A stretch of DNA of 44,468 nt, taken from a virus. Its lineage: Duplodnaviria; Heunggongvirae; Uroviricota; Caudoviricetes. Below the pieces are notes generated by a model, which was given only the letters and a program-made list of their open reading frames with translations, was not told where the DNA came from and searched no databases. The translations under genes and the position numbers were made by a program. This document shows, piece by piece, positions 591 to 42,810 of this stretch (position 1 is the first letter of the stretch; each line of letters begins with the position of its first letter). The stretch covers positions 1 to 44,468 of IMG/VR virus record IMGVR_UViG_2778261246_000004. One strand, written 5' to 3'.

Positions 591-3500
591 TTACTCGATG
601 CGCACGAACAGGCAAAGGAATCCTCTATCACCATATGTAACACGCGTACCAGACAAAGCCTGATAACGCCCCGGGAAATTGTATGCACCGGCTCCGCCAA
701 CATTAACCTGGGGAGATGAAACATACGACCCGGCATCATTGATTGTGCAACTCATCGAGACTGGCCCCAGCCGCGAACCCGGTACGATATCCCCCAGACC
801 AATTTTGATTGCCTTATCGCCTGCTGCTGTTCCCTGATAGACTGCGAGAATAAGAGAGCCAACTGCCGGATATTTGTAATATGAGTACGGGCCGTTGCCT
901 GCCGTCCGGGACAGCAGGAAGGCCAGCGAATCGCCGTCGTAAATGACGGGACTTACTGTTGCATTCCAGTTATTTCCACTCCAGCGGTAAGTCAGGCGAT
1001 GAATACTGTGCTCACCTTCGTAATACTGGTTAAAACACAGCAGCGTTTTGAATTTACGCGTTGTGTCCGACTCATCGTTATCAAAGGGCGACCACATTAC
1101 ATCAATGATGCCGTTAAATTTTGTGGTTCCTGCCAGTAGTGTGGAAGAATCCGCAATACTGACCGCATAACGCCCCGGGGTGACCTCTTTCAGCCACTCA
1201 GCAAAATCAGCCTGCCCATCAAATGCCAGTGCATCGGTGCTGGTAAATGCCTGACCGAATCCATACATGCCGGACAGCGCCAGCCTGCTTGGTGTACGGT
1301 CGCGGATATCGCTCTGGGGGTCCATTGTTGCGGCAGCTTTTAATTCCAGCAACGCACGCATCTTCTCATATGTTCCCAGACCAAGAAGCGACTTCGCTCG
1401 CCCTGTCAGGTCCGTCAGTGTCAGATTCCCGCTTTCGTTGTAATACAAAAGTGAATTTTTTCTCGGCGTAATCTGACCGACTGCTGTTAACACGTCATTA
1501 AGCGGCTGTTTACCTGCCAGTGCTTTAGTGACGGTTGTCGCAAAGTTCGGGTCATTACCCAGCGCCGCTGCCAGCTCGTTCAGCGTGTCGAGGGCTTCCG
1601 GTGATGAGCCAACCAGCGCGGCAAGCAGTTTGCGGACAAACTCCGCATTGGCTATTTCATTACCTGCTGCATCATCTGGTGGTGTTGGCGTGGACGGCGT
1701 TCCGGTCAGTGCCGGGCTGTTCAGTGGCGCGCGGGTTTCAATCAGTGCCCGGAGTGAAGCCTCGTTGACTTTCAGGTTTTCCCAGCCAACCAGATAACCA
1801 TCTCCGGTAGTCCAGTAGCGATTGTAATAAATATGGCCGTTAATACCGTAAAAAATAATGATTTTGGCCACATATGCCGGATTGGGGTTGGTTTGAGGTT
1901 CCGGCCAGATAATTTCAACGGTGCCGCTGAACAGGACTCCGGGAATCACTTTATCTGCGCCATAAACGACATAACGACCCGGTTTTGCTGTTTTTACCCA
2001 GCGGAGAAAATCTGCCTCTGTTTTAAACTCGGTCCTGTCGCCGCTGGAAAATACTTTCCCGAATCCAAACATGCCGGGAATCGCCAGACGGCCTTCGGTG
2101 CGGTCGTAAATATTCTCCTGCGCATCCTTTTGTGCTGCATTGCCCAGTTGTGGCGTCAGATTCGTCCAGGTGACCGGGGCGGAGATATTATCGCCACGAA
2201 CGGTCATGAGTATCCGTCCGTCTTTTCCAAAAAACAGAACCAGCTTTGTTGCTGTCTGGCTGGTTTTGTCGTCCCAGCCATTATCCAGCCAGATAATTTC
2301 TGTTATTCCGGTCGTCTCTTCCGTTTGTGTGGAAAAGGTGTAATACCGTCCCGGGTGCAGGTTATGCGCGCTTTTGGCTATGGTCGCCATATCGCGGGCA
2401 ATAATTGAACTTGCTCCGGCGTCCGTCATTCCGTAACCAAATGCACCTGGCAGCGCAACACGGCCTTCCGTGCTGTCGTAAAGGTCTGTCTGAATGTCCC
2501 TTACCGCTGCGCTTTTCAGCTCAAGCTCATTGCGCATGGTTTCCACTGTGGCCTGTGCCAGCAGTGACCGGGCTTTTTCTGACAGCGGAGACAGTGAAGC
2601 ATTCCCGTCCTGATTAAAGCACAGAAGATTATCCGCCCGTTCTTCCAGATTACTGATTGCGGTTAACACGTCACTGAGTGGTTGTTTACCCGCCAGCGCG
2701 TTCATGATTGTTGTCGCAAACTCCGGGTCATTGCCCAGCGCCGCTGCCAGCTCGTTCAGCGTGTCCAGGGTTTCCGGTGACGAGTCAACCAGTGCAGCAA
2801 GCAGCTTACGGACAAAAGCCGCGTTCGCCATCTCCAGCCCGGTCGCATCGTCCGGTGGAGTTGGTGTGGTTGGCGTGCCGGTGAACGCCGGGCTGTCCAG
2901 CGGCGCTTTTGTTTTCGTCTCGTCCATGACGGTTTTGACGGCCTTCGGTGTGGCTGCCAGTTCTTCGCTGTCGTTATCCGTATCACTACAGAGTTGCACC
3001 AGGCCTTTTTCTGTCGTGGAGGCATTGCTTCCCTTCAGGTCATCAACTATCCGTTGCGCCTCGTCCCTGTGCTGTTTCGCGTTCTGCTCGCTTTTTGCTG
3101 CCGCTTCGGCGCTGGCTTTTGCCTCGCCGGTCAGCGTTGCGGCTTCATCGAGTTTATCGACCGCTTTCTGGACTATCTTATCGGCATCTTTGACCGCCTG
3201 TTCTGCACGGGCGGCATCCTGTTTGGCAGATGACGCCAGTAACGCCACCTGCTTTTTATCTTCGGCAACGTCTTCTGCGTTCTGCTGTACGTTATCTGCC
3301 AGCGTCTGACAGTCTGCCTTTATCTTCTGCGCATCAGCGACATGTTGCCCGGCCTGTTGTTCGCTTTCCGCTGCCGCTTCCGCGCTCTGCTGCGCCTGCG
3401 CCACCATTTCCTCAAAGCGTTTCACTACATCCGGCTTTAAATCGCCTTCATCAAGGGCGGTCAGAAAGTCGTTCAGCGTGCCGGGCTTTGAATCGTCGTA

Positions 3501-3731
3501 AACCGAAATATCACCGACACAATATTCTCTTTCAATACACGACCGAAAATAAACATCATATCTTCCAGTCTGAGCCTCAAATGCATATTCTCCTGCCGGC
3601 CCTGTCACCACTGTTGCCACCGTTCTCATGACCACTGCAGATGTATTCTGTCGGGCTTTCAGAATAATATGGTATCCGGACATGGGAAGCCCCGCCCCAT
3701 CAGTCAGCACACCAGAAATTAATACAGACAT
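591..3731 (-). CDS. stf: Side tail fibre protein, lambda Stf-like N-terminus with repeated C-terminal modules
   Basis: 1046-aa ORF; N-terminal 100 aa align by eye with lambda Stf (ISGVL..G.G.P...I.LKAR.N...V....V, YDDS/EDSQPGTLNDFL); coiled Ala/Gln-rich stalk; conserved block APLDSPA.TGTP..P; internal duplication. Confidence 0.8.
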   Translation of the reverse strand: MSVLISGVLTDGAGLPMSGYHIILKARQNTSAVVMRTVATVVTGPAGEYAFEAQTGRYDVYFRSCIEREYCVGDISVYDDSKPGTLNDFLTALDEGDLKPDVVKRFEEMVAQAQQSAEAAAESEQQAGQHVADAQKIKADCQTLADNVQQNAEDVAEDKKQVALLASSAKQDAARAEQAVKDADKIVQKAVDKLDEAATLTGEAKASAEAAAKSEQNAKQHRDEAQRIVDDLKGSNASTTEKGLVQLCSDTDNDSEELAATPKAVKTVMDETKTKAPLDSPAFTGTPTTPTPPDDATGLEMANAAFVRKLLAALVDSSPETLDTLNELAAALGNDPEFATTIMNALAGKQPLSDVLTAISNLEERADNLLCFNQDGNASLSPLSEKARSLLAQATVETMRNELELKSAAVRDIQTDLYDSTEGRVALPGAFGYGMTDAGASSIIARDMATIAKSAHNLHPGRYYTFSTQTEETTGITEIIWLDNGWDDKTSQTATKLVLFFGKDGRILMTVRGDNISAPVTWTNLTPQLGNAAQKDAQENIYDRTEGRLAIPGMFGFGKVFSSGDRTEFKTEADFLRWVKTAKPGRYVVYGADKVIPGVLFSGTVEIIWPEPQTNPNPAYVAKIIIFYGINGHIYYNRYWTTGDGYLVGWENLKVNEASLRALIETRAPLNSPALTGTPSTPTPPDDAAGNEIANAEFVRKLLAALVGSSPEALDTLNELAAALGNDPNFATTVTKALAGKQPLNDVLTAVGQITPRKNSLLYYNESGNLTLTDLTGRAKSLLGLGTYEKMRALLELKAAATMDPQSDIRDRTPSRLALSGMYGFGQAFTSTDALAFDGQADFAEWLKEVTPGRYAVSIADSSTLLAGTTKFNGIIDVMWSPFDNDESDTTRKFKTLLCFNQYYEGEHSIHRLTYRWSGNNWNATVSPVIYDGDSLAFLLSRTAGNGPYSYYKYPAVGSLILAVYQGTAAGDKAIKIGLGDIVPGSRLGPVSMSCTINDAGSYVSSPQVNVGGAGAYNFPGRYQALSGTRVTYGDRGFLCLFVRIE

Positions 3732-7673: not shown

Positions 7674-8192
7674 TTAAACCCGGATGATTTTTTTCAGATC
7701 AGACAGAACATTAACGCCGTTAATACGGCGCACAAATTCCTCCGGAATAATGCAGATGGTTTCCACACCGTCGACAGCCTGACGGTAATAACTCAGTGAC
7801 ATTTCCACCGTCACCGAAGCCTCTGCCTGTGATGTCGCCGGGCGCGCATCCGGCGTGATACTGGTGATCATCCCCTGCAGTGTCTCCACCTGCCCGCTGG
7901 TCGCATTTCCCACCTGGTAAGCCTGGCGGACAACAATCTCCGGCGAATAAAGCCCGGCCTGCAATCCCAGCAGCGTAAGCATGGCAACATCATAACCATA
8001 AATCTTAAACGAACAGGTCAGCGCTTCCATGCCGTCATCCACTGCCACCGGTGCATCCATTGCGCCGGTTTTGATATCCACTGTCGTGATATTAATGGCA
8101 GGCGGCGTGTATTCATGCGCACCCTGAAGGCGGATCCCGCCAGGAAGAAATAACGCCCATGCGCGCAACAGTTTTTTTTCACCCGTCATCAT
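7674..8192 (-). CDS. Tail tube protein (P2 FII-like)
   Basis: 172-aa ORF directly downstream of sheath with ATGA overlap; same length as P2 FII. Confidence 0.75.
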   Translation of the reverse strand: MMTGEKKLLRAWALFLPGGIRLQGAHEYTPPAINITTVDIKTGAMDAPVAVDDGMEALTCSFKIYGYDVAMLTLLGLQAGLYSPEIVVRQAYQVGNATSGQVETLQGMITSITPDARPATSQAEASVTVEMSLSYYRQAVDGVETICIIPEEFVRRINGVNVLSDLKKIIRV

Positions 8193-9664
8193 ACCGTCAG
8201 TTCCTCCAGCGCCAGTTTATTGTTAATCATTGCCCGCAGTGTCAGGCGCTCCAGTGGTGACTTCGGCCCAAAGTCATAATCGATATACAACTGCCCTGCC
8301 GCCAGGGTTTCTGCTGTATTCAGTTCATCATTCAGCCAGGCGCTGCCACCGTGGATCGCACCCAGATTTTTAAGCTGACGCATATAGGCATTAATGCTGC
8401 CAAGAATGTCGTCTGCCACATCCCGATCAAGCGGGCGATCGACATAAGGCAACATGGCCTCCTGGATACTGTCCTCAATCACATCTGCAGTGCGACGTAC
8501 CGGTTCAAAGCGCCACTGACTGTGGGATGTGCACAGACGGTTACCCCAGTGTTTAAAACCGTCATGGCGAATAATGGTGGAGATATTTTCCATGTTCAGC
8601 AGGTTTGCCGTGCAGTTCTGCTCCCCGAGAATAAACGTATCCACCTGCTCCAGACCGGTGATATTCATCACGTCCTGGTTTGATTTGGACCACCACCACC
8701 CTTTTTCGTAATCAATACGGGCACGCAGCCCGGCAGCACGAGCCGAATATGGACGAAATATCGTTTGCCCGCTGTCATCCGTCACTGACACGCGCGGACG
8801 CAGCAGCTCCACACGCCCACCAAATGACGCGCGCCGCTGAACCACATCCTGCGGCGTTGCCATTGAAGGCGAGTCAATATAGGCCACAGCCCGCAGCTTC
8901 ACGGCATACGTTTCCAGCGCCTTTGCCACGCCATCATCCTCACTGTACCCCGTGGCAATGAGGATGCGCGGTTGATAGCCTGTGACGCCCTTACTTTCTG
9001 TCAGCGCCTCCATGGCCTGAATCACCGCCGCACGCTGTTCGGCCTCTTTCGCCTTTGTTTTACTTTCTGCGCGCACCACAATCACCAGCGCACCAGTCTG
9101 GTCAAAAATATCACGCAGGGCCGGGTATAATGTTCCGGCTGTGCCCAGTTTCCCCGCCTGAGTAATGGCCCCTGCCACCACCACCGGTGTGTTGACCGGG
9201 AACGCCTCATCTTCCCCGCCGGATAACGTCAGGCTGAATGGCGACACCACTTTATTTTCAGCGCCTCCTGCATTCAGGGTGCTGGCAGCCGCCGTCACAG
9301 GCGAATCCCCCAGCGCATTCACCACTTCAGTCACACGATCCACCGTGGCGTTAACCTGGCTGTGTTCGTCCGTCCCCAGTGTTATCGTCAGGGTCGTACC
9401 TTTCAGCGAGGCCACTGTCTGCGCGTTTTGTTCCGTGGCAGCCACGGCAACAACCGAAATCTTATTACCGACCCGACCTTCCTGTTTCGCCGTGAAATCC
9501 AGCGCCGTTCCCAGCAGCCATGAGCCGGCAGTGCCGGAAGCGCACACACCACCAGAGGCGTCCGGCGCTGTCCCCACCAGGCCAATCACTGCCGTGGAGA
9601 TGGTCTGCACGGCAACCGTGCCTGTCGTCAGTTCAATGGTTTCAACACCATGTAATCCGGACAT
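8189..9664 (-). CDS. Contractile tail sheath protein (P2 FI-like)
   Basis: 491-aa ORF; size, position upstream of tube gene and overall sequence character match myovirus sheath proteins. Confidence 0.8.
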   Translation of the reverse strand: MSGLHGVETIELTTGTVAVQTISTAVIGLVGTAPDASGGVCASGTAGSWLLGTALDFTAKQEGRVGNKISVVAVAATEQNAQTVASLKGTTLTITLGTDEHSQVNATVDRVTEVVNALGDSPVTAAASTLNAGGAENKVVSPFSLTLSGGEDEAFPVNTPVVVAGAITQAGKLGTAGTLYPALRDIFDQTGALVIVVRAESKTKAKEAEQRAAVIQAMEALTESKGVTGYQPRILIATGYSEDDGVAKALETYAVKLRAVAYIDSPSMATPQDVVQRRASFGGRVELLRPRVSVTDDSGQTIFRPYSARAAGLRARIDYEKGWWWSKSNQDVMNITGLEQVDTFILGEQNCTANLLNMENISTIIRHDGFKHWGNRLCTSHSQWRFEPVRRTADVIEDSIQEAMLPYVDRPLDRDVADDILGSINAYMRQLKNLGAIHGGSAWLNDELNTAETLAAGQLYIDYDFGPKSPLERLTLRAMINNKLALEELTV

Positions 9665-10266: not shown

Positions 10267-11652
10267 TTACAAACTCGCTACATTCCGCCAGACGCCATTA
10301 ATCAGAACCTGCACCGGGCGGGCATTGGCCCAGTCCATACTTTCACCACCATCAAGACCGCTGATAAGGTGACCTGATGGTGCATTCCCGCCACGCCCAA
10401 TACCAATGGCACCGCCCAGACGCACATCCTGTACACCGCCTGTTTTGGTCTGATAGCGGGCATCAAAGTTTCCGTAGTTTGATGGAACCATCTGCCCGTT
10501 TACAGCGAACGTTATACTGTTATCCGTATTCCTCTGACTGTAAAAATGCCAGCCGGAATCATCGCCAAGCTCTGCAACTACAGGTCGGGATGAATTACCC
10601 CATAAATTAAACGTTGCGTTTTTCGTGGAGTTGTTGGCGCTGGATAACGTGAATTTTTTAGCATTTCCGGCCTGAATATTTTTTAACGCTATCGCCACAC
10701 CATTCTGGAAACGAAATACATGCTGTCCATTCGCATAAACATCCAGAATGCCGTCGCCGTTTTGTTTTATACCTGTATCGTTATCCCCGAAAGCAATTGA
10801 GTTTCCGCCCAGCGCGTTCTGAACGCCGATACCCAGCGTACCATTGACCTGAGAACCGCCGCCAACAGACACTTTATGCGACATGGATATTTCACCCGTC
10901 CGCAGATTAATAGTGAACGGTCGAAGTGGACCAATATCGCCATTCTCGCCCTGACCTTCACTGGTAGGGATAAGGTGCAGGCACTCTTCCGAACGACGAA
11001 AAATCAGACCAAAGGCTTCGTTGAAAATCCTCAGCGCATTAACACCACGGATTTTCAGTTCCCCGGTCATGGTGTCACCATCACGCTGAACGGCATTTTT
11101 TGCCTTGTCCACCGTGGGTTTTAATCCGAGGTTTTCAACAGCCTCATCCTTGTCTTCCACATCCGAAAGATTCTTTTTTCGTTGCAGATAGCGTCTGTCT
11201 CCGATTTCCTGAGTAATAATGGCCCTGTCCGGATCAACTTCCAGCACCACGTTTTGTGCGTGCGTCAGCCCAAGAACCAGCGTCAGAATAACTTCCTTGA
11301 TAACGGAGTCCGTCTGGTCTGGTAAAAAGGTGTCGGGATAACGTCCGTACGCGATAAGCGTACCTCTGTCGCTGATCATCCCCAGTTCACGAAGGGTTTT
11401 ACCGGGGTATGATTTACAGTCAATCACAATATCCCCGCTGATGAAGCCCTCCTCCACCGCACCGTCGGAAAAGGGTTCCTGCCCGAATTCGCCGTACAAC
11501 GATGTCATTGCTGCCATTTCATCCGGCGTGGAGGGCAATGCCCGCCCGCCCCCGTCACCAAGCAGAACATGCCGGACGGTCACGGTTTGCCCGTTCTGAT
11601 ATGCTGCTTCAATTTCTGCAGCGCCGGACGTTGTCAGAATCAGTCCATTCAT
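10267..11652 (-). CDS. Tail fibre protein (P2 gpH-like N-terminal domain)
   Basis: 461-aa ORF between gpI-like and Tfa genes; Gly/Asn-rich C-terminal half typical of fibre tips. Confidence 0.75.
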   Translation of the reverse strand: MNGLILTTSGAAEIEAAYQNGQTVTVRHVLLGDGGGRALPSTPDEMAAMTSLYGEFGQEPFSDGAVEEGFISGDIVIDCKSYPGKTLRELGMISDRGTLIAYGRYPDTFLPDQTDSVIKEVILTLVLGLTHAQNVVLEVDPDRAIITQEIGDRRYLQRKKNLSDVEDKDEAVENLGLKPTVDKAKNAVQRDGDTMTGELKIRGVNALRIFNEAFGLIFRRSEECLHLIPTSEGQGENGDIGPLRPFTINLRTGEISMSHKVSVGGGSQVNGTLGIGVQNALGGNSIAFGDNDTGIKQNGDGILDVYANGQHVFRFQNGVAIALKNIQAGNAKKFTLSSANNSTKNATFNLWGNSSRPVVAELGDDSGWHFYSQRNTDNSITFAVNGQMVPSNYGNFDARYQTKTGGVQDVRLGGAIGIGRGGNAPSGHLISGLDGGESMDWANARPVQVLINGVWRNVASL

Positions 11653-12239
11653 ACACCTGCCTCACTCTGCCCGCCTGTGGGCACTGTCTTTGTTGTCACA
11701 CCGGTACTTCTGATTTTTTCTGTCGCCATCACATAGCCGTAACCAAATCCACGCCCTGTGCTGTTCCCGTAAACGTGAATACTGAACCAGCTGCGCAGAT
11801 TTTTGGCACGGAGCACCGCATGCTTCAGATCCTGATGATCATTCATCAGCACCGGTAAATCCTTCTGCTCCACGTTCAGACGAAAGGTATACGGCTCCCC
11901 GGGTGGGGTCTGCTCATACCACTCAACAATCTGCGACCGGAAGGGACTGTCAGCCAGCGATGCCATCAGCGCCGCTTTAGTCCCTCTGTGGCGGTGGATG
12001 TAAGCAGCACGTTTTATCGCAGACCGTTTTTCCGCCTCCGTCCAGTGTTCATTCCAGGTGTCCACCGCCATTTCCCAGGCCAGCCATGGCAGCAATTCAG
12101 CAGGACATAAATCGGGATTTTTCACATAGCGGATCAGGCAGACCGCTATGTCTGACAGCATATCTCCGGCGACACAGTCCACCACCCGCTCTGCCCGGCT
12201 GGCACTGACCGGCAGTATGCTCCTGATATCGTCATTCAT
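11649..12239 (-). CDS. Baseplate protein gpI-like
   Basis: 196-aa ORF; motif PA.LLPWLAWE/A...D.W matches P2 gpI by memory; position after gpJ. Confidence 0.75.
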   Translation of the reverse strand: MNDDIRSILPVSASRAERVVDCVAGDMLSDIAVCLIRYVKNPDLCPAELLPWLAWEMAVDTWNEHWTEAEKRSAIKRAAYIHRHRGTKAALMASLADSPFRSQIVEWYEQTPPGEPYTFRLNVEQKDLPVLMNDHQDLKHAVLRAKNLRSWFSIHVYGNSTGRGFGYGYVMATEKIRSTGVTTKTVPTGGQSEAGV

Positions 12240-13146
12240 CAGTTGTCTCCACCTTATTCAGCGTTACCTTACGGCACCACGGTGCCTGCCCCATCGCAGG
12301 AACGATATCACTGCCCGGAGAAGTCAGATTCACCGTAATCACCCCGGTCTGGTGAAGGGCACCATCCATGCCAGAACGGGATGCCACCGAGCCAATCCGG
12401 TGGACACTGTCAGTGTATGACTGCAGCGCCTTGTGGGCATTTGCCATAACCAGTTCACCATCCAGTCCGTAGGGAATATGAATATCCGCCACCACATCGT
12501 AGGGAATAATTTCTGCCGCCCGGACACTGACAAAATCCGTCAGGGGACGGGTTTCATCATCACAGACTGATGCTGCCACCTTATCCAGCAGAGGTTGTGA
12601 TGCAGTGCCATTTCCGGACCGGGATAACACATAAAGAAAAACCCGGCCTTCCTGCGAATGTGTTTCCGGCCCGTAAGCCTTCACATCCAGCACGTCAGGA
12701 TCAGCACTTTGTGCAAAATAGTGATACGCATTTTTCGCGCCGGCGGTGCTGAGCCGTGCCCATGACAACTGGATACGTTCGCGAAAAGCGTCATCATCTT
12801 CATACACCGCCGGCGTGGGCGGAACGGTGCTGTCGTCTGCCGGGGTAATCACCAGACGCTGTACCTGAAAATTCGCACCAATCTGATCCAGGTCGTTCCT
12901 TCGGGCGCTCGCAAGCAGTACACCCCGGACAGCATCATTGACCTGCTGGCGCATCAGCGCCACCCGGAAAGCCAGCGCCTCTGCCCATTTATACGCGGGA
13001 TCAGATTCCACCAGAGCCGAAAACAACGTATCCAGCTCCTGATACTTCGCCACTATCTGAGTGACCAGCACAGCGGTGTCCGGCACCTCCACCGCATCCG
13101 GTACCGGTATCGCGGACAGATCAATAATTGCCTGAGACGTTGCCAA
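12232..13146 (-). CDS. Baseplate assembly protein J (P2 gpJ-like)
   Basis: 304-aa ORF (P2 gpJ is about 302 aa); V-W-J-I order. Confidence 0.8.
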   Translation of the reverse strand: MATSQAIIDLSAIPVPDAVEVPDTAVLVTQIVAKYQELDTLFSALVESDPAYKWAEALAFRVALMRQQVNDAVRGVLLASARRNDLDQIGANFQVQRLVITPADDSTVPPTPAVYEDDDAFRERIQLSWARLSTAGAKNAYHYFAQSADPDVLDVKAYGPETHSQEGRVFLYVLSRSGNGTASQPLLDKVAASVCDDETRPLTDFVSVRAAEIIPYDVVADIHIPYGLDGELVMANAHKALQSYTDSVHRIGSVASRSGMDGALHQTGVITVNLTSPGSDIVPAMGQAPWCRKVTLNKVETTDE

Positions 13147-13477
13147 TTTTTATCTCCTCGAGTCGAATCGTTTCCTGAGTTTCGTTGTTCACCCCGACAA
13201 GCGTCAGCCACGCGCTTCCTTCTCCTGTCCACGTCACTTCCACCCGCCGGAGAGTCAGACGGGGTTCCCAGCGTTCAAGGGCGGTTACCGTTTCACGAAC
13301 AATTCTCACCCGCGTGAAATCATCCTGTGGGTTATCAAGCAGACTGAAAAGTCTGCTGCCGTATTCCCTGAGCAGGACCCGGCTGCCGACCGGTGTTGAC
13401 AAAATATCAGTGACGGACTGGCGCAGATGTTCGTTACCGTGCAGATATCTGCCGGTGGCTGAATCAATACCAATCAT
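13121..13477 (-). CDS. Baseplate protein W (gpW / GP25-like)
   Basis: 118-aa ORF; block D.L.TPVGSRV.RR.YGS resembles P2 gpW. Confidence 0.8.
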   Translation of the reverse strand: MIGIDSATGRYLHGNEHLRQSVTDILSTPVGSRVLLREYGSRLFSLLDNPQDDFTRVRIVRETVTALERWEPRLTLRRVEVTWTGEGSAWLTLVGVNNETQETIRLEEIKIGNVSGNY

Positions 13478-13510
13478 GTTGTTTATTCCGGAAAAAGAAC
13501 TGAAAGGAGA

Positions 13511-14134
13511 TTACATTTGCTGACCAGGCTGTCCGGTGCTGCCACCACTGTCGCCCCGGTGATTGTGACCGTTATAGACAATTCTGATTTGACTCATCGT
13601 TCCGTGATAATCAGAAACCTCACCACCGACCATCAGATCCGCCTTAACCACCGCCTCAGCATTCATGGTTGCTTTACCCTGTACGGTCAGGGTATCTGTG
13701 ATTTCTACCGGACCGTCCAGGGTTCCCCTGCCTGTAATTTTATAGCTGCCGCCTTCAGCCAGCGTGATGGACAGGACATTAGCCTGACGGTCGTAACGGA
13801 TTTCCGTTCCGGTATCAAACAAAATAACATGTTCGTATTCACTGCCCTCAGGGACAGGAATGGCGTCAATATTGGCCCCCGGATACACCCGACCGTTACG
13901 CAAATCGCCCGCCTCCGATATCACTGTAACGGCATCTCCGGGAGCCGGGTAATTACTGACCTGCATGTAGCGCCCGGACTGTACCTGAATCCAGGGCAAC
14001 GGAGGCGAAAGCACATCCCCGATATCCACCCGAACCATCACCGGGCTACCCGGGATCACCTCGTCCACCACGCCGCGACGGACCATGTCCGCCACCCTGC
14101 GGCGTAACTCTGCCACTTCATCCGCCAGACTCAT
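13511..14134 (-). CDS. Baseplate spike protein V (P2 gpV-like)
   Basis: Start taken at internal ATG 14134 (GGAGGG RBS 8 nt upstream; longer ORF overlaps the upstream gene); C-terminal Gly-rich needle motif with His residues. Confidence 0.75.
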   Translation of the reverse strand: MSLADEVAELRRRVADMVRRGVVDEVIPGSPVMVRVDIGDVLSPPLPWIQVQSGRYMQVSNYPAPGDAVTVISEAGDLRNGRVYPGANIDAIPVPEGSEYEHVILFDTGTEIRYDRQANVLSITLAEGGSYKITGRGTLDGPVEITDTLTVQGKATMNAEAVVKADLMVGGEVSDYHGTMSQIRIVYNGHNHRGDSGGSTGQPGQQM

Positions 14135-14684
14135 CACCGGTGCCCTCCGATTTCCAGATAAGACGATAATCCCGCTCATGTTTCTTGCCGGTTTCCGGAG
14201 CTTTCCCCAGCCAGACTTCCTGTAACGGCGCACCAGCCGGAACCTCGAACGGATCTTCTCCGACAGGAATATCCTGTTCAAAAGAAACGCGGAAAACGAT
14301 GTAGTCATCCAGAAGCCGGTCGAAGGTATCCACCTCAGCATCAATAAAAACAGCCGGATCAACGTTATCCAGCCCGAACGTGGCCCCCTCAATCCAGTCA
14401 GATAAATCCATCGCCAGACAACGGGCAAAAATCTGCGGTTTTGGCACGTTTTCCGTCTTCCCGGCCCGGTCTGTCACCACAAACAGATCACATTTCAGCG
14501 TGACCCGCGTCTGCCCGTCGGCAAACTGAGCCTTGTCCCAGCCCGGTACATCCACAAACACGGCAGGCGTCACCAGTTGTGTCACTTTTTCCGGATACTC
14601 ATCGGCATCTTCCACCCAGGGAATTTGTTTCAGACTGTCAATCACCGCCTGATGCCAGGCGCCCATCATCAATGGCTCCATCAC
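14118..14684 (-). CDS. Hypothetical tail completion / neck protein (position of P2 R/S)
   Basis: 188-aa ORF between head-joining genes and gpV; function assigned by position only. Confidence 0.4.
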   Translation of the reverse strand: MMEPLMMGAWHQAVIDSLKQIPWVEDADEYPEKVTQLVTPAVFVDVPGWDKAQFADGQTRVTLKCDLFVVTDRAGKTENVPKPQIFARCLAMDLSDWIEGATFGLDNVDPAVFIDAEVDTFDRLLDDYIVFRVSFEQDIPVGEDPFEVPAGAPLQEVWLGKAPETGKKHERDYRLIWKSEGTGDESGG

Positions 14685-15403: not shown

Positions 15404-15791
15404 AACGTTTACTCGGTCGTTCCGGTGCAGCAGGTGTATTTCTCCCGGGCTCTCCACGCGCAAGGGTGATGGTAATCACCCCCTGACCCGCAGCGCCTGA
15501 CTCATCCCAGCCGGGATCGACTACCTGATAGGGTTCGCCGTGGATCATGACCCTGTCATATTTTTTCAGACCGGCGGCCCATGCGCTCCGGGTAAATAAC
15601 ACGGGCGCAGTATCACGAATTTCGCCGCTGCCAGTGTTCATCCCGGTGTTATCTGCCGGGGCATCAAAAACGGCACGGATTTTTCTTTCCGTGCCGCCCG
15701 GATATATGCTGATTTCCGTCCCCATCGTATCCAGGATGATGTCATCCGCATCACTCATGGCCTGATCGAACAGATTATCGAACATCATCAC
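15384..15791 (-). CDS. Head-tail joining protein, lambda FII-like
   Basis: 135-aa ORF; N-terminus M..FDNLFD.A...AD..I...MGT matches lambda FII by memory. Confidence 0.7.
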   Translation of the reverse strand: MMMFDNLFDQAMSDADDIILDTMGTEISIYPGGTERKIRAVFDAPADNTGMNTGSGEIRDTAPVLFTRSAWAAGLKKYDRVMIHGEPYQVVDPGWDESGAAGQGVITITLARGEPGRNTPAAPERPSKRYGSQRA

Positions 15792-16153
15792 TCCCGGATT
15801 TTTTCTGCCAGACCGTCTGCCAGCAACGCGGGAACTGTGGCTTCATTAACCAGCACAACACTGGAGGCCCGGGCAAACATCAACATTTTTCCCGTCACAG
15901 CATCACAGGCTGGCATATGCGCCGTTTTCAGCATACGCACCCGGGCGAGTCCCTGCTCAGAATGCATTCCGTCGCCGGATGCATCGTTGCCCACCTCTTC
16001 CTTCCCCGTCTCCTCCCCATCGAATCCGGCGGCCTCCTCCTCCCATTCCGCCAGACGCTGCTCAAGATCGGCTTTTGAACCTGAAATATCTGCTTCACGC
16101 CCCAGAATCACTGCCAGTTCCTGCAAACGTTCAGTCATCTGCTCTTTTGTCAT
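15788..16153 (-). CDS. DNA packaging protein, lambda FI-like
   Basis: Start at internal ATG 16153 (MTKEQ, RBS GGGAGAG); position between E and FII as in lambda. Confidence 0.55.
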   Translation of the reverse strand: MTKEQMTERLQELAVILGREADISGSKADLEQRLAEWEEEAAGFDGEETGKEEVGNDASGDGMHSEQGLARVRMLKTAHMPACDAVTGKMLMFARASSVVLVNEATVPALLADGLAEKIRE

Positions 16154-16203
16154 CACATCTCTCCCGTGCGCTAAAGAAAAAGGCGGGAATATCCCGCCCT
16201 GTC

Positions 16204-17232
16204 TTATTTCACCTGAACCACCACAAACGCATCCGGATCCGGCAGCACCATCAACGGCGCAGACTGCGTCATGGTATATTCGCAACCAGGATCCCCCACT
16301 TCCTCCCAGTGTTTCGGATAACGAATCGCAGAGGTGATCCCTTCACTCAGCGCCTGATTATCCTGGATTGCGCCATAGCAACGGACGCCCTCCGCCTGAG
16401 TGTTTCCCAGAATCAGTGTGCCTTCCGGCAGATAACGCTGTTCATCGCCGTTTTCATCAACATACGTTGTCTTCGCCACCACAATGGCCAGATCGCCGTA
16501 ATGGCCTTTAAAGGAAACCACGGAGCCCAGGTCTTTCAGTGCCGTTTCCAGCTCAGATTTGGAGCCACGGCGGGTATCCAGTTTTTCACGGAACAGTTTA
16601 AAACCGTTCAGCATACGCCAGACCGTACCGTCCATAATCGCGATATTGATGGTACCGGAAGCAAAATCGCAGTACGCATCAAGATCATGCGTCGGATCAA
16701 AGGTGTCAGCATTCTGCTTTGACCATTCGCGTCCGCCAGCCTGCGTAATGTTATTGGCGGCAGAACGCCCAAAATCCACTTCCACCGTCTCAAACTGCTC
16801 GCCGCTCATGGTGTATTTACCCTGCAGAACGGCACTGACTGCCTGCATTTCTTCCACCTGCACAATCGCCTGCTCTTCCTGTTTCAGGTTGTCCGTCAGA
16901 ATACGCAGACGGCGGTAAGCCGGGTCATTAAGGCGGGCCGGATCTTCCCCCGGAAGACGTTCTACAGCCTGCTGATAATCAAAGCGGTGTTTTGGTTTTA
17001 CATAACCGGGACGTAACACGCGGGTTTCACCACCACGGCTGCGCAGCACTTTGCCTGACACCACCGGAGACACATACGCCGCAACCGGTGTTTTGCCGGT
17101 AATTTTATCCAGCATGACTTCCTGAGTATGGAAAGTGATCGTGCGACGAAAGAACAGCTCAAGAAACAGCGCACGAAATTTCACTTTCTGCTCGGTGTAC
17201 CCGAGTAACTGACGCGTGGTAAATAACCCCAT
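16204..17232 (-). CDS. Major capsid protein, lambda gpE-like
   Basis: 342-aa ORF (lambda E is 341 aa); long runs align with lambda E (YVSPV.SG.V.RSRGG, PGYVKPKH, EEMQAVSAVL.GKYTM.GE.F, NITQ.GG.EWSK, LDTRRGS.SELETA.KDLG). Confidence 0.9.
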   Translation of the reverse strand: MGLFTTRQLLGYTEQKVKFRALFLELFFRRTITFHTQEVMLDKITGKTPVAAYVSPVVSGKVLRSRGGETRVLRPGYVKPKHRFDYQQAVERLPGEDPARLNDPAYRRLRILTDNLKQEEQAIVQVEEMQAVSAVLQGKYTMSGEQFETVEVDFGRSAANNITQAGGREWSKQNADTFDPTHDLDAYCDFASGTINIAIMDGTVWRMLNGFKLFREKLDTRRGSKSELETALKDLGSVVSFKGHYGDLAIVVAKTTYVDENGDEQRYLPEGTLILGNTQAEGVRCYGAIQDNQALSEGITSAIRYPKHWEEVGDPGCEYTMTQSAPLMVLPDPDAFVVVQVK

Positions 17233-17301: not shown

Positions 17302-17637
17302 TCAGGCGTGGCTGATGGCACTTCCCACAAATGCGTTGGCTTTTTTCACCGCATCCACCGAACCAGGCCAGGCCAGCGACTCAGTGGCAAACGTACCGCT
17401 TTTGTAGTACGTCAGCATGGGCTCGGTCCCGGCAAGCGCCAGAGCCAGCACACCCACAGCCGTTCCGGCTTTCTGACCATCCCAGACAACCAGTTTTCCG
17501 GTGGCGTCATCCAGCATCAGTGGCGTCAGTGCAGGTGTGGCAGCACTGATACCACTGGTGGCTGTTGCGGTATGCGCCGGATCGCTTCCGGCAAAAATGC
17601 GCACATCTGCACGCTTTTCCGTGGTGGTTTTAATCAT
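17302..17637 (-). CDS. Head decoration protein, lambda gpD-like
   Basis: 111-aa ORF; SDPAHTATA..G.SA..PA.TPLMLD...KLV.WDG, YKSGTF and FVG.AIS match lambda D. Confidence 0.85.
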   Translation of the reverse strand: MIKTTTEKRADVRIFAGSDPAHTATATSGISAATPALTPLMLDDATGKLVVWDGQKAGTAVGVLALALAGTEPMLTYYKSGTFATESLAWPGSVDAVKKANAFVGSAISHA

Positions 17638-17675: not shown

Positions 17676-19292
17676 TTACGGCATACTCATCAGCAGGTCT
17701 TCCTCCCCGCGCCCGGCAGTTCCGCCACCGGAAACCGCACTGGCAGCATGCTGTGCCATAAAGCGATCAAAAAGTGTTTCCTGTGACGGTTGCGATGCCG
17801 CCGGCGCGGCTGCCAGCAGCGTTTTCGCCTGCACCACCGTCATTCCTGGCTGTTCTGTCAGTGCCTGTGCAAGTTGCTCGCGCCCTTTTGCCTCCGGCAG
17901 CGCCATAATCTGATCGCCGACACTTGCAGAACCCGCAACCGGTGCCGCCGCCAGTAACGTTTTGGCCTGGTCAACGGTCATTCCCGGCTGTTCAGCCAGC
18001 GCCTGCGCGAGTTGTTCACGCCCTTTTGCTTCCGGTAACGCCATAATCTGATCGCCTGTGCCTGCAGCACCGGCAGCAGGGGCTGCCGCCAGAAACGCTT
18101 TCGCCTGCTCCACCGTCATCCCCGGTTGACCTGCCAGCATCTGTGCCAGTTGCTCACGCCCCTTTGCTTCCGGCAGCCCCATAATCTGATCACCTGTATT
18201 TGCCACACTGGCAGCAGGCACAGCAGCCAGGAACGCTTTCGCCTGCTCTACCGTCATTCCAGGCTGACCTGCCAGCATTTGCGCCAGTTGCTCGCGCCCT
18301 TTCGCCTCCTGACAATTCAGGATCCCCATCACGCGCTGATTTTCCTGGGCCACCGCTTCAGCAACGGTGAGATTTTTAACAGTCATTGCATTCTCCTTCG
18401 TAACAGAGTCATTCAGTGCAGAAACCATCACTTCAACGGCATCTGCAGCATTAATCAGTTGATCAGCCAGACCTGCATCAATGCCTGCCTGACCGTCATA
18501 AACGGCAGCCTCGGTATTCATCACCGCCTCTGAACTCAGCCCCGTATAAAGCGCCACCTTGTCGACAAACATCCGGCGGGCCTCATCAATACGGCGCTGA
18601 AAATCTGCACGCACACCTGCCGGCAATGCCTGAATACTGTTGCCATCAACCTTGTGCTGCCCGGAGTAAATCAGCGTGATGTCCACCCCTTCCTGTGCCA
18701 GTTGTTTCTCGTAACTGGCGTGCGCCATCATCACGCCAATCGAACCAATTTTTGCCGTCTGCGTGACCAGCCGACGGGTACAGGCTGCCGCCAGCAACAT
18801 GGCGGCTGAACAGGCCATGTCATTACACAGCGCCCACACGGGCTTCTGTTCCCGCAGACGGTAAATCATGTCAGCGCAGTCAAACGCCCCGGCAGCCTGA
18901 CCGCCCGGGCTGTCGATATCCAGCAAAATGCCGCTCACATCCGGATCATTCACCGCCATCTGAAGACGGGCAGTCAGGCCGTCATAGCCAGTCATGCCGG
19001 AGTAAGGCCGCAGGGTACCCAGTTTATGCACCAGCGTGCCGCTCACCGGCAGAATGGCGATGCCATTCTTCACCTGGTAACTCTTTGCCGGACGCTGACC
19101 GCCCGCCATATAGTCAGTCACAGCCAGTTGCATACCATCAGCATCAAGCTGAACAGCCTGCTGAGGAACGGCAAGGCTGCCGGCCCCCATCTCTTTACCC
19201 AGCGCGCAAAAGAAAACCCGCGCATAGGCGGGCTCCAGTAAAAGCGGTTCATTAAATGCCATGGCGGCAATATGCGATAAATTACGACGCAT
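17676..19292 (-). CDS. Prohead protease / scaffold protein, lambda gpC-like (S49 peptidase family) with expanded C-terminal repeats
   Basis: Start ATG 19292 (MRRNLSHIAAMAFNEPLLLEPAYARVFF matches lambda C N-terminus); C-terminus has four tandem 46-aa repeats. Confidence 0.8.
   Translation of the reverse strand: MRRNLSHIAAMAFNEPLLLEPAYARVFFCALGKEMGAGSLAVPQQAVQLDADGMQLAVTDYMAGGQRPAKSYQVKNGIAILPVSGTLVHKLGTLRPYSGMTGYDGLTARLQMAVNDPDVSGILLDIDSPGGQAAGAFDCADMIYRLREQKPVWALCNDMACSAAMLLAAACTRRLVTQTAKIGSIGVMMAHASYEKQLAQEGVDITLIYSGQHKVDGNSIQALPAGVRADFQRRIDEARRMFVDKVALYTGLSSEAVMNTEAAVYDGQAGIDAGLADQLINAADAVEVMVSALNDSVTKENAMTVKNLTVAEAVAQENQRVMGILNCQEAKGREQLAQMLAGQPGMTVEQAKAFLAAVPAASVANTGDQIMGLPEAKGREQLAQMLAGQPGMTVEQAKAFLAAAPAAGAAGTGDQIMALPEAKGREQLAQALAEQPGMTVDQAKTLLAAAPVAGSASVGDQIMALPEAKGREQLAQALTEQPGMTVVQAKTLLAAAPAASQPSQETLFDRFMAQHAASAVSGGGTAGRGEEDLLMSMP
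17780..18335. repeat. Four tandem imperfect 138-bp direct repeats inside the protease/scaffold gene
   Basis: Protein repeat LPEAKGREQLAQ(M/A)LA(G/E)QPGMTV.QAK..LAAAP...; lambda C carries a single copy of the related segment. Confidence 0.7.
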
Positions 19293-20853
19293 CGCCTTTT
19301 CCTCCCGTTGTCTGTCGGATCTGCTGCACAAACGTGTCCTTTATCCAGATGGGGCGGGGAAGACCCGCTGCCTGTCGCTCCTGGCTTTCACGCAGTTGCT
19401 GGCGGAAAATCTCCTGATAGTCATCGCCCATCAGGGCCAGCTCTTTCTCGTACGTGCTTAAACCACCTTCAATACGCATCACCGCTTCCTGCACTTCCTT
19501 AAGGCCATCAATCGCCATGCGACCGGCACCAATCCACTCGGCACGACACCATCCGGAACGGGCCTCCCAGAATGAAAAACGGGATTTCGGCGGACGGATC
19601 ACACCGCGAATAAGAGCTTCCTCCAGCCAGCAGGCAAACATCTGTGATGCCAGCCGGCTGGCCACAAATTTTCGTTTGCCCATAAAATACCGCCACGACT
19701 CATTGGCGGATGCCCTGGCACTGGAATAACTGACCTGTGAATAATCACGGGAAAGCTGTTCATAGGACACCCCCAGTCCGGCAGCGATGTAACGTAACAG
19801 CGCCTTTTCCAGTTCAGAGAAACCATTATCTGCATTCTGCGCTGTCTGCAGATTCAGTGAATCCCCCGGATAAAGATGCGGAATACGGACCCCGCCCAGC
19901 TTTACCGTATTGGTGGCGTAATAACGCGCGTAGCCTTTCATGATGGTGTTCAGGGGATTTTTACCGCCATCTCCCACCCCGGCGATATATTCAAATGCTT
20001 TTTCCGAATCCAGCGTGGATTCAATCGTCGCGGCATACATCGCCCGCACCACCGCCGACTGCAGTTGCGTGGCCTGCAGCGTGTCGAGCATCTTGAGACG
20101 CTCCATGACAGAATAAAACTGGTTGGCCCCGCGCGTCTGCCCGTCCTCCTGCGGCTGAAACACATGGATCATTCCCGGTCGCCCGGAGGGCAGCGTCGCC
20201 GCAATCCGCGTCCAGTTGCTGACACCGTAACCGGGCCAGTCATCTTCCTGAACATGGTAGGCCAGTGCTTTTCCGTACCGGTTGATTTCCACCCCGGCAC
20301 GCATAAAACGATCGCCGGTACCATAACCGGGTGTACTGACACGTTTCGGGCTGATGGTCTTGAATTTCGTCCGGAATAATGACGTGGATTCCGTATCCCA
20401 TACGGGCTGGACAAAAATTTCACCGTTAAACGTATGAACGCCCACCCCTTCACGAATAAATTCGGTAAACGAGCGACGCCCCTCCACATCCATCGAACCA
20501 AACACAGGATCGCAATATTCCATCCACGCCGCCTCCACATCTTCAATAAAGGCATGCGAATCGGCTTCCGACATCCCCAGCCAGCGCCAGTTGGGCCGGT
20601 AGCTCAGACGAAACATGTGCCCGACGATATGGTCTTTATGAATTTCCACTGCATTTGCGGCAATACCGTTGTTACGGACCAGATCATCCGCACGGGCGTT
20701 ACCCAGCTGAATGGAAGGTAAGAGCGCCACGTCGGCACTTTCCGGTGCAGGCAACCATTCCGCAAGCTGCCCGCCAAATCCGGTACCCCCTCCGGAATAC
20801 CCCATACTCTGCCGCAATGGCTGCCCGTGAAGATCCACCAGTTCCCTGTTCAC
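19282..20853 (-). CDS. Portal protein, lambda gpB-like
   Basis: 523-aa ORF between W and C as in lambda. Confidence 0.85.
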   Translation of the reverse strand: MNRELVDLHGQPLRQSMGYSGGGTGFGGQLAEWLPAPESADVALLPSIQLGNARADDLVRNNGIAANAVEIHKDHIVGHMFRLSYRPNWRWLGMSEADSHAFIEDVEAAWMEYCDPVFGSMDVEGRRSFTEFIREGVGVHTFNGEIFVQPVWDTESTSLFRTKFKTISPKRVSTPGYGTGDRFMRAGVEINRYGKALAYHVQEDDWPGYGVSNWTRIAATLPSGRPGMIHVFQPQEDGQTRGANQFYSVMERLKMLDTLQATQLQSAVVRAMYAATIESTLDSEKAFEYIAGVGDGGKNPLNTIMKGYARYYATNTVKLGGVRIPHLYPGDSLNLQTAQNADNGFSELEKALLRYIAAGLGVSYEQLSRDYSQVSYSSARASANESWRYFMGKRKFVASRLASQMFACWLEEALIRGVIRPPKSRFSFWEARSGWCRAEWIGAGRMAIDGLKEVQEAVMRIEGGLSTYEKELALMGDDYQEIFRQQLRESQERQAAGLPRPIWIKDTFVQQIRQTTGGKGDAS

Positions 20854-35819: not shown

Positions 35820-36896
35820 TTACCCCCTGAAGCCCGGCGGAATTTCGTTATCCGGTTCAGAAATATGATTCACACAACGCTGGTTGTTCGTGCCGCTTAC
35901 CGGGAGCAACCAGGGGTTCTCAAAATTCCGGTCCGGTCCAAAAAACGTCGTCGCTCGCTGAACAAATTCCGTTCCCGTTTTCCCGGTAGCCGCCAGGTAT
36001 CTTGCGTAACGCCTCACGCCATCCAGCATGGCCTCTGGTGGCACCCCCTCGCGTAATCTGGCCTTCCAGGCACTGAAAGCTGATTTCTTCGGGTTTGCTC
36101 CGGCACGCAACGGGTACTCCCGCCAGACCTGTTCGAACACATCCGGATAATCCACTCGTCCCACAGACTGCCCGGTGTTTTCCGGGACTACCCGATCGGC
36201 TTCCCGCTGAATGGCGGAATCGGCTTCGGGCTGCTGCAGTTGGTGTGATTGCTCCAGCCTTGCGGTCATCACCTGCTGCACAGCGCCCGAATCGGCTTTC
36301 AGCGCATACGCTGAATCGGCTTCCGGTGTCGTGCCTGCTGGCTGACCAAGATTGACGGTCTGAACATCCCCTGCCTGGTTCGTGGCGTTTTTTACGCCAT
36401 GGACCATAGTGTTTTGATCTTCTTGATCTGTATCTTTATCTGTATCTTTATCTGTCGTGACTCGTCGTGACATGTGCGTGACATTTCGTGACGCGCCGTG
36501 ACAATCGCCATTTTGTTCCCGCTTTCTTTCCCTCTCTCGCTGCGCCCTCTTGCGCTCTGCAGGAGATTTTGCGGTTTGCGAAATATTGCCGTTGTCCTCT
36601 TTAAGCACCTGGCGTTTTTCCCATCCAGTGATTAAATCACCATCAAGTACCCGCCCCTGCATCGTCTGCAAAATTGAATCAATTACCTCTTCTGTCACGT
36701 CGAGCGCACTTGCCAAATCTTCTGTCGTGACATCAATGTGACCTCGCGTGACATTTCGTGACGCGCTCACCAGGAGGTGGATATACACTGCCATCACTGT
36801 TGCAATTGGCTGCCCTGACACCCTGGCAATTGTTCGCCACTTAGGGTCATTTGGCATGTCATGCCATAATCTGAGCCAGGCGTTAGCCATACTCAC
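35820..36896 (-). CDS. Replication initiation protein (replisome-organizer type) containing the putative origin iterons
   Basis: 358 aa; N-terminus MANAWLRLWHDMPNDPKW...IA..VY.HLL typical of phage replisome organizers (memory); two clusters of CGTGAC repeats inside the gene. Confidence 0.6.
   Translation of the reverse strand: MSMANAWLRLWHDMPNDPKWRTIARVSGQPIATVMAVYIHLLVSASRNVTRGHIDVTTEDLASALDVTEEVIDSILQTMQGRVLDGDLITGWEKRQVLKEDNGNISQTAKSPAERKRAQRERERKREQNGDCHGASRNVTHMSRRVTTDKDTDKDTDQEDQNTMVHGVKNATNQAGDVQTVNLGQPAGTTPEADSAYALKADSGAVQQVMTARLEQSHQLQQPEADSAIQREADRVVPENTGQSVGRVDYPDVFEQVWREYPLRAGANPKKSAFSAWKARLREGVPPEAMLDGVRRYARYLAATGKTGTEFVQRATTFFGPDRNFENPWLLPVSGTNNQRCVNHISEPDNEIPPGFRG
36434..36515. 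repeat. Iteron cluster 1: 2.5 copies of ATCTGTATCTTT then five CGTGAC repeats at 10-11 bp spacing
   Basis: Seen directly; 22-bp element GCGTGACATTTCGTGACGCGC shared with cluster 2. Confidence 0.6.
36690..36765. repeat. Iteron cluster 2: four to five GTCACG/CGTGAC repeats including second copy of GCGTGACATTTCGTGACGCGC
   Basis: Seen directly, about 260 bp from cluster 1 inside the same gene. Confidence 0.6.
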
Positions 36897-42540: not shown

Positions 42541-42810
42541 ATGAGCGAACAGTACCTGATAACGCTCGATGAGTGGAAGCCAAAACGGTTCAGTCTCCCA
42601 ATAACAAACACTACCCTGGTGAAATACGGAAAACTAGGATACATCGTTCCAAGACCACAAAAAATTCGTGGGCGTTGGCTGATAGATCGCCGGGCAGTAT
42701 TTGTTGGACCTGGTGAAACGGGAATTGCGCCGGAAATTCATACTGGCGATGATGATGCACTGAAGGAGATTTTAACTCATGTCACCGAGGCCACGAAAAA
42801 ACAGCACTGA
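42541..42810 (+). CDS. xis: Excisionase (lambda Xis-like)
   Basis: YLITLDEW..KR........V.....G..VP.P.K..GRWLIDRRAV parallels lambda Xis; directly upstream of and overlapping int. Confidence 0.6.
   Translation: MSEQYLITLDEWKPKRFSLPITNTTLVKYGKLGYIVPRPQKIRGRWLIDRRAVFVGPGETGIAPEIHTGDDDALKEILTHVTEATKKQH

Follow-up and report, generated by a model that had tools for sequence, protein, structure and literature searches.

Why should a head gene of an Escherichia coli prophage carry, near its 3' end, four in-frame copies of a module that phage lambda carries once, and what might the additional copies do? The question arises from a 44,468-nucleotide stretch of viral DNA (Caudoviricetes; IMG/VR record IMGVR_UViG_2778261246_000004, positions 1 to 44,468), here called the window. 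An earlier note, made from the letters alone, had described four tandem copies at the C-terminus of a head protease/scaffold protein, and had raised the possibilities of an expanded docking or scaffold domain and of copy-number change. The best overall explanation, to which a probability of about 0.6 is attached, is a C/Nu3-type protease with a nested scaffold, in which the module would serve as a docking or assembly element and its four copies would confer multivalency.

The array lies inside a minus-strand open reading frame (17676-19331), with the protease read from ATG 19292, in the following surroundings:

19282-20853, minus strand: portal gene, neighbour in the head module
17676-19292, minus strand: gene for the gpC-type prohead (head maturation) protease, 538 codons plus stop
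18423-18857, minus strand: S49 serine peptidase domain, aa 146-290 (Pfam PF01343, Peptidase_S49)
17302-17637, minus strand: gpD-like decoration protein, neighbour in the head module
16204-17232, minus strand: gpE-like major capsid protein, neighbour in the head module

The probable protease start, ATG 19292 (MRRNLSHIAAMAFNEPLL...), aligns with the N-terminus of lambda gpC, and the start of the gene overlaps the end of the portal gene. The terminase lies upstream of the head genes and homologues of FI and FII downstream, and the gene order is that of lambda B-C/Nu3-D-E. The peptidase domain matches PF01343 with E=2.9e-33 (115.5 bits, against a cutoff of 24.9), accompanied by a similarity to NCBIfam SppA_dom under the cutoff of that model, and is 61.8% identical to lambda C (aa 11-294) and 74.4% to phage 21 gp5. 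The best PHROG for the protease is phrog_53, head maturation protease (E=5e-223), while the PHROGs ‘head scaffolding protein’ (phrog_8399, four stretches) and ‘capsid assembly protein’ match the C-terminal region, in four or five stretches. The assignment to a head protease/scaffold protein made in the earlier note is thus borne out, with the repeats falling in the nested-scaffold part, and the identification of the locus as a head protease-scaffold gene of lambda C/Nu3 type, carried by an E. coli prophage, and of the module as a member of this family is near certain.

Tandem Repeats Finder reports the array at 17803-18309 (period 138 bp, 3.7 copies, 79% matches, no indels, score 566), as the only strong tandem repeat across the 44.5-kb window. 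The register of the protein extends this to four in-frame units of 46 codons (138 bp) on the minus strand, spanning 17784-18335, in agreement with the four copies of about 138 bp first seen at 17780-18335. A period divisible by three and a frame open throughout show that the repeat is a coding one, and exclude chance as its cause. The units, followed by the end of the protein, are:

18198-18335, minus strand: repeat unit 1, aa 320-365, RVMGILNCQEAKGREQLAQMLAGQPGMTVEQAKAFLAAVPAASVAN
18060-18197, minus strand: repeat unit 2, aa 366-411
17922-18059, minus strand: repeat unit 3, aa 412-457
17784-17921, minus strand: repeat unit 4, aa 458-503
17679-17783, minus strand: conserved C-terminal tail, aa 504-538, QETLFDRFMAQH...EEDLLMSMP, with a predicted helix and a short terminal helix

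Unit 1 opens with RVMGILNCQ (RVMGILNCQEAKGRE...) where the other three have TGDQIMALP, so that the motif given in the earlier note, LPEAKGREQLAQ.LA.QPGMTV.QAK..LAAAP, describes units 2-4 but not the opening of unit 1. The single unit of lambda also departs from TGDQIMALP, and unit 1 is the nearest to it of the four (57% amino acid identity). The module comprises about 40 residues, with an amphipathic helix, a short loop (QPGMT) and a second helix, and successive copies are joined by flexible linkers rich in Ala, Gly, Ser and Pro.

AlphaFold2 predictions bear on this module at the level of secondary structure only. For the 236-residue scaffold (17-sequence alignment) the pLDDT was 46 and the pTM 0.17, and for unit 4 with the tail (81 aa, 65-sequence alignment) the pLDDT was 58, too low for a tertiary model. 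Both runs nevertheless agree on a predicted helix-loop-helix for each unit, consisting of a helix of 12-16 residues, the QPGMT loop, a helix of nine residues and about 16 disordered residues. In the tail a helix (ETLFDRFMAQHA) and a short terminal helix are predicted (residues 47-58 and 71-77 of the 81-residue model), and the best pLDDT of that model, about 75, falls in the tail helix. The low confidence is consistent with the disorder reported for lambda gpNu3, to which Medina et al. (2011, J Mol Biol 412:723; cited in PMC9295703 and PMC8069851) refer in their title as ‘intrinsically disordered and biologically functional’. A search of the scaffold part against PDB sequences gave no match at E<=10 except one chance hit, and Pfam and NCBIfam yielded no significant model over the repeat region; sub-threshold matches of the repeats to DUF732, the HU N-terminus and T2SSK were taken as noise, or as a generic resemblance among helix-loop-helix segments.

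Two further features suggest that the repeats may be translated in more than one context:

18393-18398, minus strand: Shine-Dalgarno sequence AAGGAG, 6 nt upstream of an in-frame ATG at 18386
17676-18386, minus strand: predicted nested Nu3-like scaffold ORF, 236 aa (MTVKNL...), co-terminal with the protease

The predicted scaffold contains all four units and the tail. A motif of AGGAG/GGAGG type with an ATG is present at the homologous site in E. coli STEC308 (a five-unit allele), SE11, phage 21 and lambda, and in the phage 21 record (GenBank M81255) a ribosome-binding site and the start of gene 6, the Nu3 homologue, are annotated at the homologous position. All but one of 112 homologues bearing the anchor motif have a Met no more than 25 residues ahead of unit 1. 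Very probably, then, the locus specifies both the 538-aa protease and the nested 236-aa scaffold, the separate expression of the latter being suggested by these start signals. The nested gene carries no annotation in the E. coli genome records examined.

The closest parallels are found in lambda and phage 21. In lambda, as the earlier note had stated, one related segment is present, the annotated C protein (426 aa) bearing it at aa 348-391 (unit profile E=1.2e-18, one match), and every sequence feature of lambda C/Nu3 that was looked for is found at the locus: the S49 domain, the gene position, the internal start, the unit (…EAxGRE…PGMTV…LAAAP) and the tail. The two systems share their architecture, their genomic position, a nested in-frame scaffold, one homologous unit and a C-terminal tail, and relative to lambda the array is, as had been proposed, an expansion from one unit to four. 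By contrast, the single lambda unit is preceded by a segment of about 50 residues rich in Ser, Thr, Ala and acidic residues, and Nu3 is 131 aa long if counted from the ATG with a strong Shine-Dalgarno sequence. Phage 21 genes 5 and 6 are closer still, with an S49 protease, a nested scaffold starting from the homologous ATG after the annotated ribosome-binding site, and in-frame tandem units of the same family followed by a related tail. The differences lie in number and length: phage 21 has three units, more diverged from one another than the four of the window (61-85% identical in protein), and a scaffold of 200 rather than 236 aa. The GenBank entry of phage 21 marks three repeat_regions inside gene 6, named ‘Tri1 box’, ‘Tri box’ and ‘Tri3 box’ and described as ‘function unknown; putative’, and these coincide with the three units found by the profile derived from the window, so the repeat family had already been noticed in the early 1990s. 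The array of the window is a four-copy variant of the ‘Tri box’ array of phage 21. Proteins with nothing material to distinguish them from that of the window are widespread among prophages of E. coli, Citrobacter, Salmonella and E. marmotae (four copies, 538 aa, 89-98% identity, e.g. cluster P0004 with 826 members), and in the source records are called only S49 family peptidase.

Copy number among close homologues was counted with a profile built from the four units of the window, which returned one unit for lambda when this was added to the same run. Among the best 120 database homologues, three units were found in 74 and four in 42, with rarer cases of five (two proteins), two (two proteins) and six (one protein, with a duplicated three-unit block). 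Of the clusters at 89% identity or above, only two singleton proteins, each with five units, depart from a copy number of four; the four-unit clusters include ones of 826, 470 and 153 members, from E. coli, E. marmotae, E. albertii, Citrobacter and Salmonella. Three units are found in most Salmonella and E. coli relatives, and also in a cluster of 196 members (P0038) and a Cronobacter one (P0040). The lineage of the window occurs in 108 of 5426 complete E. coli genomes, and in 99 of the 108 a 1501-bp query spanning the array is covered by a single collinear match of 89-99.6% identity; among the matches listed, the collinear rows span 1492-1503 bp of the target record, and the best DNA match, at 99.6%, is E. 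coli U90 from swine. Thus four units are the standard allele of this prophage lineage, and the collinearity of the array in many independent complete genomes excludes the assembly artefact against which the earlier note had advised a check.

Among 60 matches listed, four STEC genomes stop at the edge of the array. A mosaic breakpoint was considered and rejected for STEC308, the one genome of the four that was examined, in which an extra unit breaks the megablast alignment. In its complete genome the gene codes for 584 aa and five full units, and identity to the window is 99.4% in the capsid protein, 99.6% in the portal and 98% in the protease domain. The extra unit sits between the counterparts of units 2 and 3, and two adjacent units are 96% identical in DNA, with an exact run of 79 bp. 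Two other five-copy alleles (P0001 and P0002) contain an exact duplicate of unit 2, and a two-unit allele (P0108) contains one hybrid unit, which suggests an in-register deletion.

Among more distant relatives, the unit profile recovered 435 proteins at E<=1e-3 among 1.84 billion cluster representatives. In the best 150 of these 435, one unit was found in 128, two in 17 and three in five, and a broader iterated profile gave a similar distribution of copy number. The iterated profile also ruled out degenerate hidden copies in the linkers of single-unit relatives, which are acidic and of low complexity, and extend for about 50-150 residues where the clade of the window has units. Carriers of the module are of two sorts, fusions to the protease (about 400-550 aa) and short proteins (about 80-230 aa), and across the family the last unit ends about 45 residues before the C-terminus (median 44.5). 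The consensus unit of these distant relatives, AILALPEAKGREALAQKLAATPGMTVEQAKAILAAAPKA, is strikingly conserved: over 65 diverse homologues, residues E10, G13, A18, M27, A32 and L36 are invariant, and all four units of the window retain them. In phage isolates, one unit was matched in lambda, 434, N15, phi80 and HK225, and three in phage 21 and its relatives; no four-unit match was found in the phage-isolate collection by protein search, isolates reaching three at most, and by nucleotide search the repeat part was covered by no phage-isolate record, so that within the collection searched four units are known from prophages only. A single unit is thus the widespread state, with multi-unit arrays characterizing an enterobacterial clade and four-unit arrays one lineage within it.

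The four-copy array is therefore nothing special, and the pattern among homologues that the earlier note had named as counting against its reading is largely what is seen: multiple copies are the norm in enterobacterial homologues, the array is shared collinearly by 99 complete genomes, and the phage 21 record already carries an annotated three-copy array. The feature is ordinary for its family and in essence previously noticed, and the exact protein is abundant in public databases, so that its value as a discovery is small and specialists will find it unsurprising. Three points are mildly new, namely the explicit series from one to five copies of one conserved module, the fixation of four units in a widespread prophage lineage and their absence from the phage-isolate collection searched, and the lack of a domain model for the module in the libraries scanned. 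The value for annotation is more concrete, as a module without a matching Pfam or NCBIfam model and a nested scaffold gene left uncalled in the E. coli records examined could both be added, and the natural series of one, two, three, four and five units, some with identical capsid proteins, could be put to use in the study of the poorly understood lambda scaffold.

As to function, one reading frame would, in the preferred explanation, give rise both to the S49 prohead protease and to an internally initiated scaffold identical to the C-terminal part of the protease, and the module together with the tail would recruit both into the assembling procapsid, by contacts with the major capsid protein and/or other scaffold molecules, although the partner of the module itself may be the capsid protein, the portal, the protease or the scaffold. 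The four copies would make a largely disordered scaffold multivalent, acting as weak binding elements joined by flexible linkers, with the extra units taking the place of the long acidic linker of distant single-copy relatives; the co-packaged protease would then degrade the scaffold after assembly. In lambda, the scaffold is Nu3, which is needed for portal incorporation, interacts with C, with itself and, by two-hybrid, with E, and is possibly degraded by C ahead of DNA packaging (PMC3224144). The region shared by C and Nu3 is an obvious means of bringing both into the procapsid. The unit and the tail are the best candidate for the docking element, because the unit is conserved across the family and holds a fixed position ahead of the tail in fusions and short proteins alike.

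A functional analogy, and no more than that, is offered by P22, where the helix-turn-helix domain of the scaffold is essential for coat binding (bioRxiv 10.1101/2022.12.13.520362). P22 gp8 likewise has a small two-helix element near the C-terminus of an otherwise flexible protein, which recruits the coat, but it shows no detectable sequence similarity to the module, possesses a single such domain, is not fused to a protease and, instead of being degraded, is recycled; the module is thus no homologue of the P22 domain, and the AlphaFold2 models are too low in confidence for a meaningful comparison of folds. The exact number of units is not critical, given that four or five occur with capsid and portal proteins more than 99% identical and that lambda makes do with one, and the extra copies could be nearly neutral. 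The mechanism of docking and multivalency, including the presumed binding partner and the presumed benefit of several copies, is put at roughly even odds.

The strongest competitor, although rather unlikely, holds that the units are self-association ‘stickers’, mediating scaffold-scaffold and scaffold-protease contacts while the tail contacts the capsid, so that more units would yield a more cross-linked core. Many scaffolds, including that of P22, use the extreme C-terminus to bind the coat. The tail, itself conserved, follows the last unit at a fixed distance and is modelled with the best pLDDT, and both Nu3-Nu3 and C-Nu3 interactions have been reported in lambda (PMC3224144). Against this division of labour, it is the units rather than the tail that are the better conserved across distant phages; the tail gave no BLASTP match to lambda, and is 39-43% identical to those of SE11 and phage 21. 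A more specific version, which we regard as a long shot, treats the module as the ‘sticker’ of a sticker-and-spacer disordered scaffold, whose valency (one in lambda, three in phage 21, four or five in the lineage of the window) would set self-association and the nucleation of capsid protein around the portal, amounting to a condensate-like core. If it were true, the four- and five-unit alleles with identical capsid proteins would be a ready series for relating valency to the kinetics and fidelity of assembly.

Docking by multivalent units has also to be weighed against an improbable proposal, that the extra units are a spacer or filler, the protein needing mainly a certain length or volume of flexible region from its protease domain to its last unit and tail, for which duplicated units happen to be the material of this clade as the acidic low-complexity linker is of others. 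This would fit the linkers of about 50-150 aa that distant single-unit relatives carry in place of units, and the tolerance of three, four or five copies with the same capsid proteins. A spacer should drift, yet all of the units keep the invariant residues, and selection is evident on each. The units of the window are 63-79% identical to one another in DNA and 61-85% in protein, and between units dS is about 0.9-1.7, near saturation, while dN/dS is 0.09-0.39 and, in the two-helix core, dN is 0.04-0.19. A dS of around 1 combined with a low dN/dS indicates that the duplications are old and that each copy has been kept as protein, and this purifying selection argues against both a mere spacer and a function at the DNA or RNA level.

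The same divergence makes it very unlikely that the array is a hypervariable, slippage-prone locus with frequent switching of copy number, or an artefact of assembly. Alleles of three, four and five units do exist within the lineage, those of three and five being rare, adjacent units are near-identical in the five-unit alleles of STEC308, P0001 and P0002, and the hybrid unit of the two-unit P0108 allele points the same way. These observations uphold the earlier expectation of copy-number change over evolutionary time, but not for the diverged four-unit allele itself, which is collinear in 99 of the 108 matching complete genomes across 89-99.6% identity. Efficient RecA recombination in E. coli requires roughly 20-30 bp of identity, and no exact in-register match between units of the window is longer than 18 bp, leaving little substrate for unequal exchange. 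Nor does the array resemble a contingency-type locus, as its units are not near-identical and close relatives seldom differ in copy number. By these measures the four-unit array is comparatively stable and diverged rather than hypervariable, and it serves as a caution that coding tandem repeats with diverged synonymous sites are to be read as stable.

That the repeat acts as DNA or RNA, whether as an array of binding sites, a structured RNA or an antisense gene, is scarcely credible. The period equals exactly 46 codons of the reading frame, the protein is strongly conserved, and synonymous positions have diverged almost to saturation where the amino acids have been kept, the reverse of what a nucleotide element would lead one to expect. 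Long opposite-strand ORFs across the array (18126-18533 and 17790-17957) might seem to favour such a role, but a GC-rich coding repeat is expected to produce them as a by-product.

The 46-aa (138-bp) unit, present in four tandem copies in the gpC-type protease/Nu3-like scaffold gene of the window, occurs in five copies in the same gene of E. coli STEC308 (NZ_CP091020.1, L003 3878-5632, where L003 denotes the STEC308 locus), which encodes a protein of 584 aa. The head module of this strain is closely related to that of the window, with 99.4% identity for the capsid protein and 99.6% for the portal protein. At the DNA level, units 2 and 3 of the five-unit allele share 96% identity, indicating that they were duplicated recently.

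In the distant, single-unit homologues P0144-P0155, the position occupied by the additional units in the window is filled by linkers of roughly 50-150 aa with a high content of Asp, Glu and Ala. The linker of P0149 contains a short tandem repeat of its own (DDAESNEDE, six copies). Two homologues are unusually long: P0044 (657 aa), in which a three-unit block is present twice, and P0052 (743 aa), which contains about 300 aa between units. Both may result from more extensive duplication or from faulty assembly.

The window amounts to an essentially complete mosaic prophage. In the part at window 591-23517, a contractile P2/Mu-like tail is joined to lambda-type packaging and head genes. The prophage has the following features:

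Window 591-3731, first of two tail-fibre genes
Window 8189-9664, tail sheath
Window 10267-11652, second of two tail-fibre genes
Window 11649-14428, baseplate genes
Window 15788-16285, FI-like ORF
Window 42779-43897, integrase
Lambda-type packaging and head genes: terminase, portal, C/Nu3, D, E, FI and FII homologues

In P0041 (E. coli, 610 aa), the gpC-like protein is broken off inside unit 3, and runs into sequence named 'phage baseplate assembly protein V' by NCBI. This protein looks like the product of a deletion derivative of the window's prophage type, from which the D, E, FI and FII region has been lost.

The FI-like ORF matches both the FI chaperone family and phrog_2353, the PHROG profile named 'major head protein', the latter at profile positions 317-481. 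This suggests that the members of phrog_2353 include E-FI fusions or merged gene calls. Translation of the ORF in the window probably begins at an internal Met (MTKEQMTERL). As for the scaffold start in lambda (OR974322.1), the annotated nu3 (L002 1177-1782, where L002 denotes the lambda locus) encodes 201 aa from an ATG without an evident Shine-Dalgarno sequence. A strong AGGAGG is located upstream of the ATG at MTKETQ. This ATG would give a 131-aa product; window 18386, the predicted start of the nested Nu3-like scaffold, and the start of gene 6 in phage 21 lie at the homologous position.

Tandem repeats are also present in two other genes of the window. The replication-initiator gene (window 35820-36896) contains a 12-bp repeat, TCTTTATCTGTA, at 36421-36455 (2.9 copies, 95% matches). 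It recalls the iterons seen where the replication origin lies within the initiator gene itself, as with lambda O. The 823-aa exonuclease gene (window 40008-42479) contains an imperfect 21-bp repeat at 41531-41621 (4.3 copies), a period corresponding to a 7-aa coding repeat.
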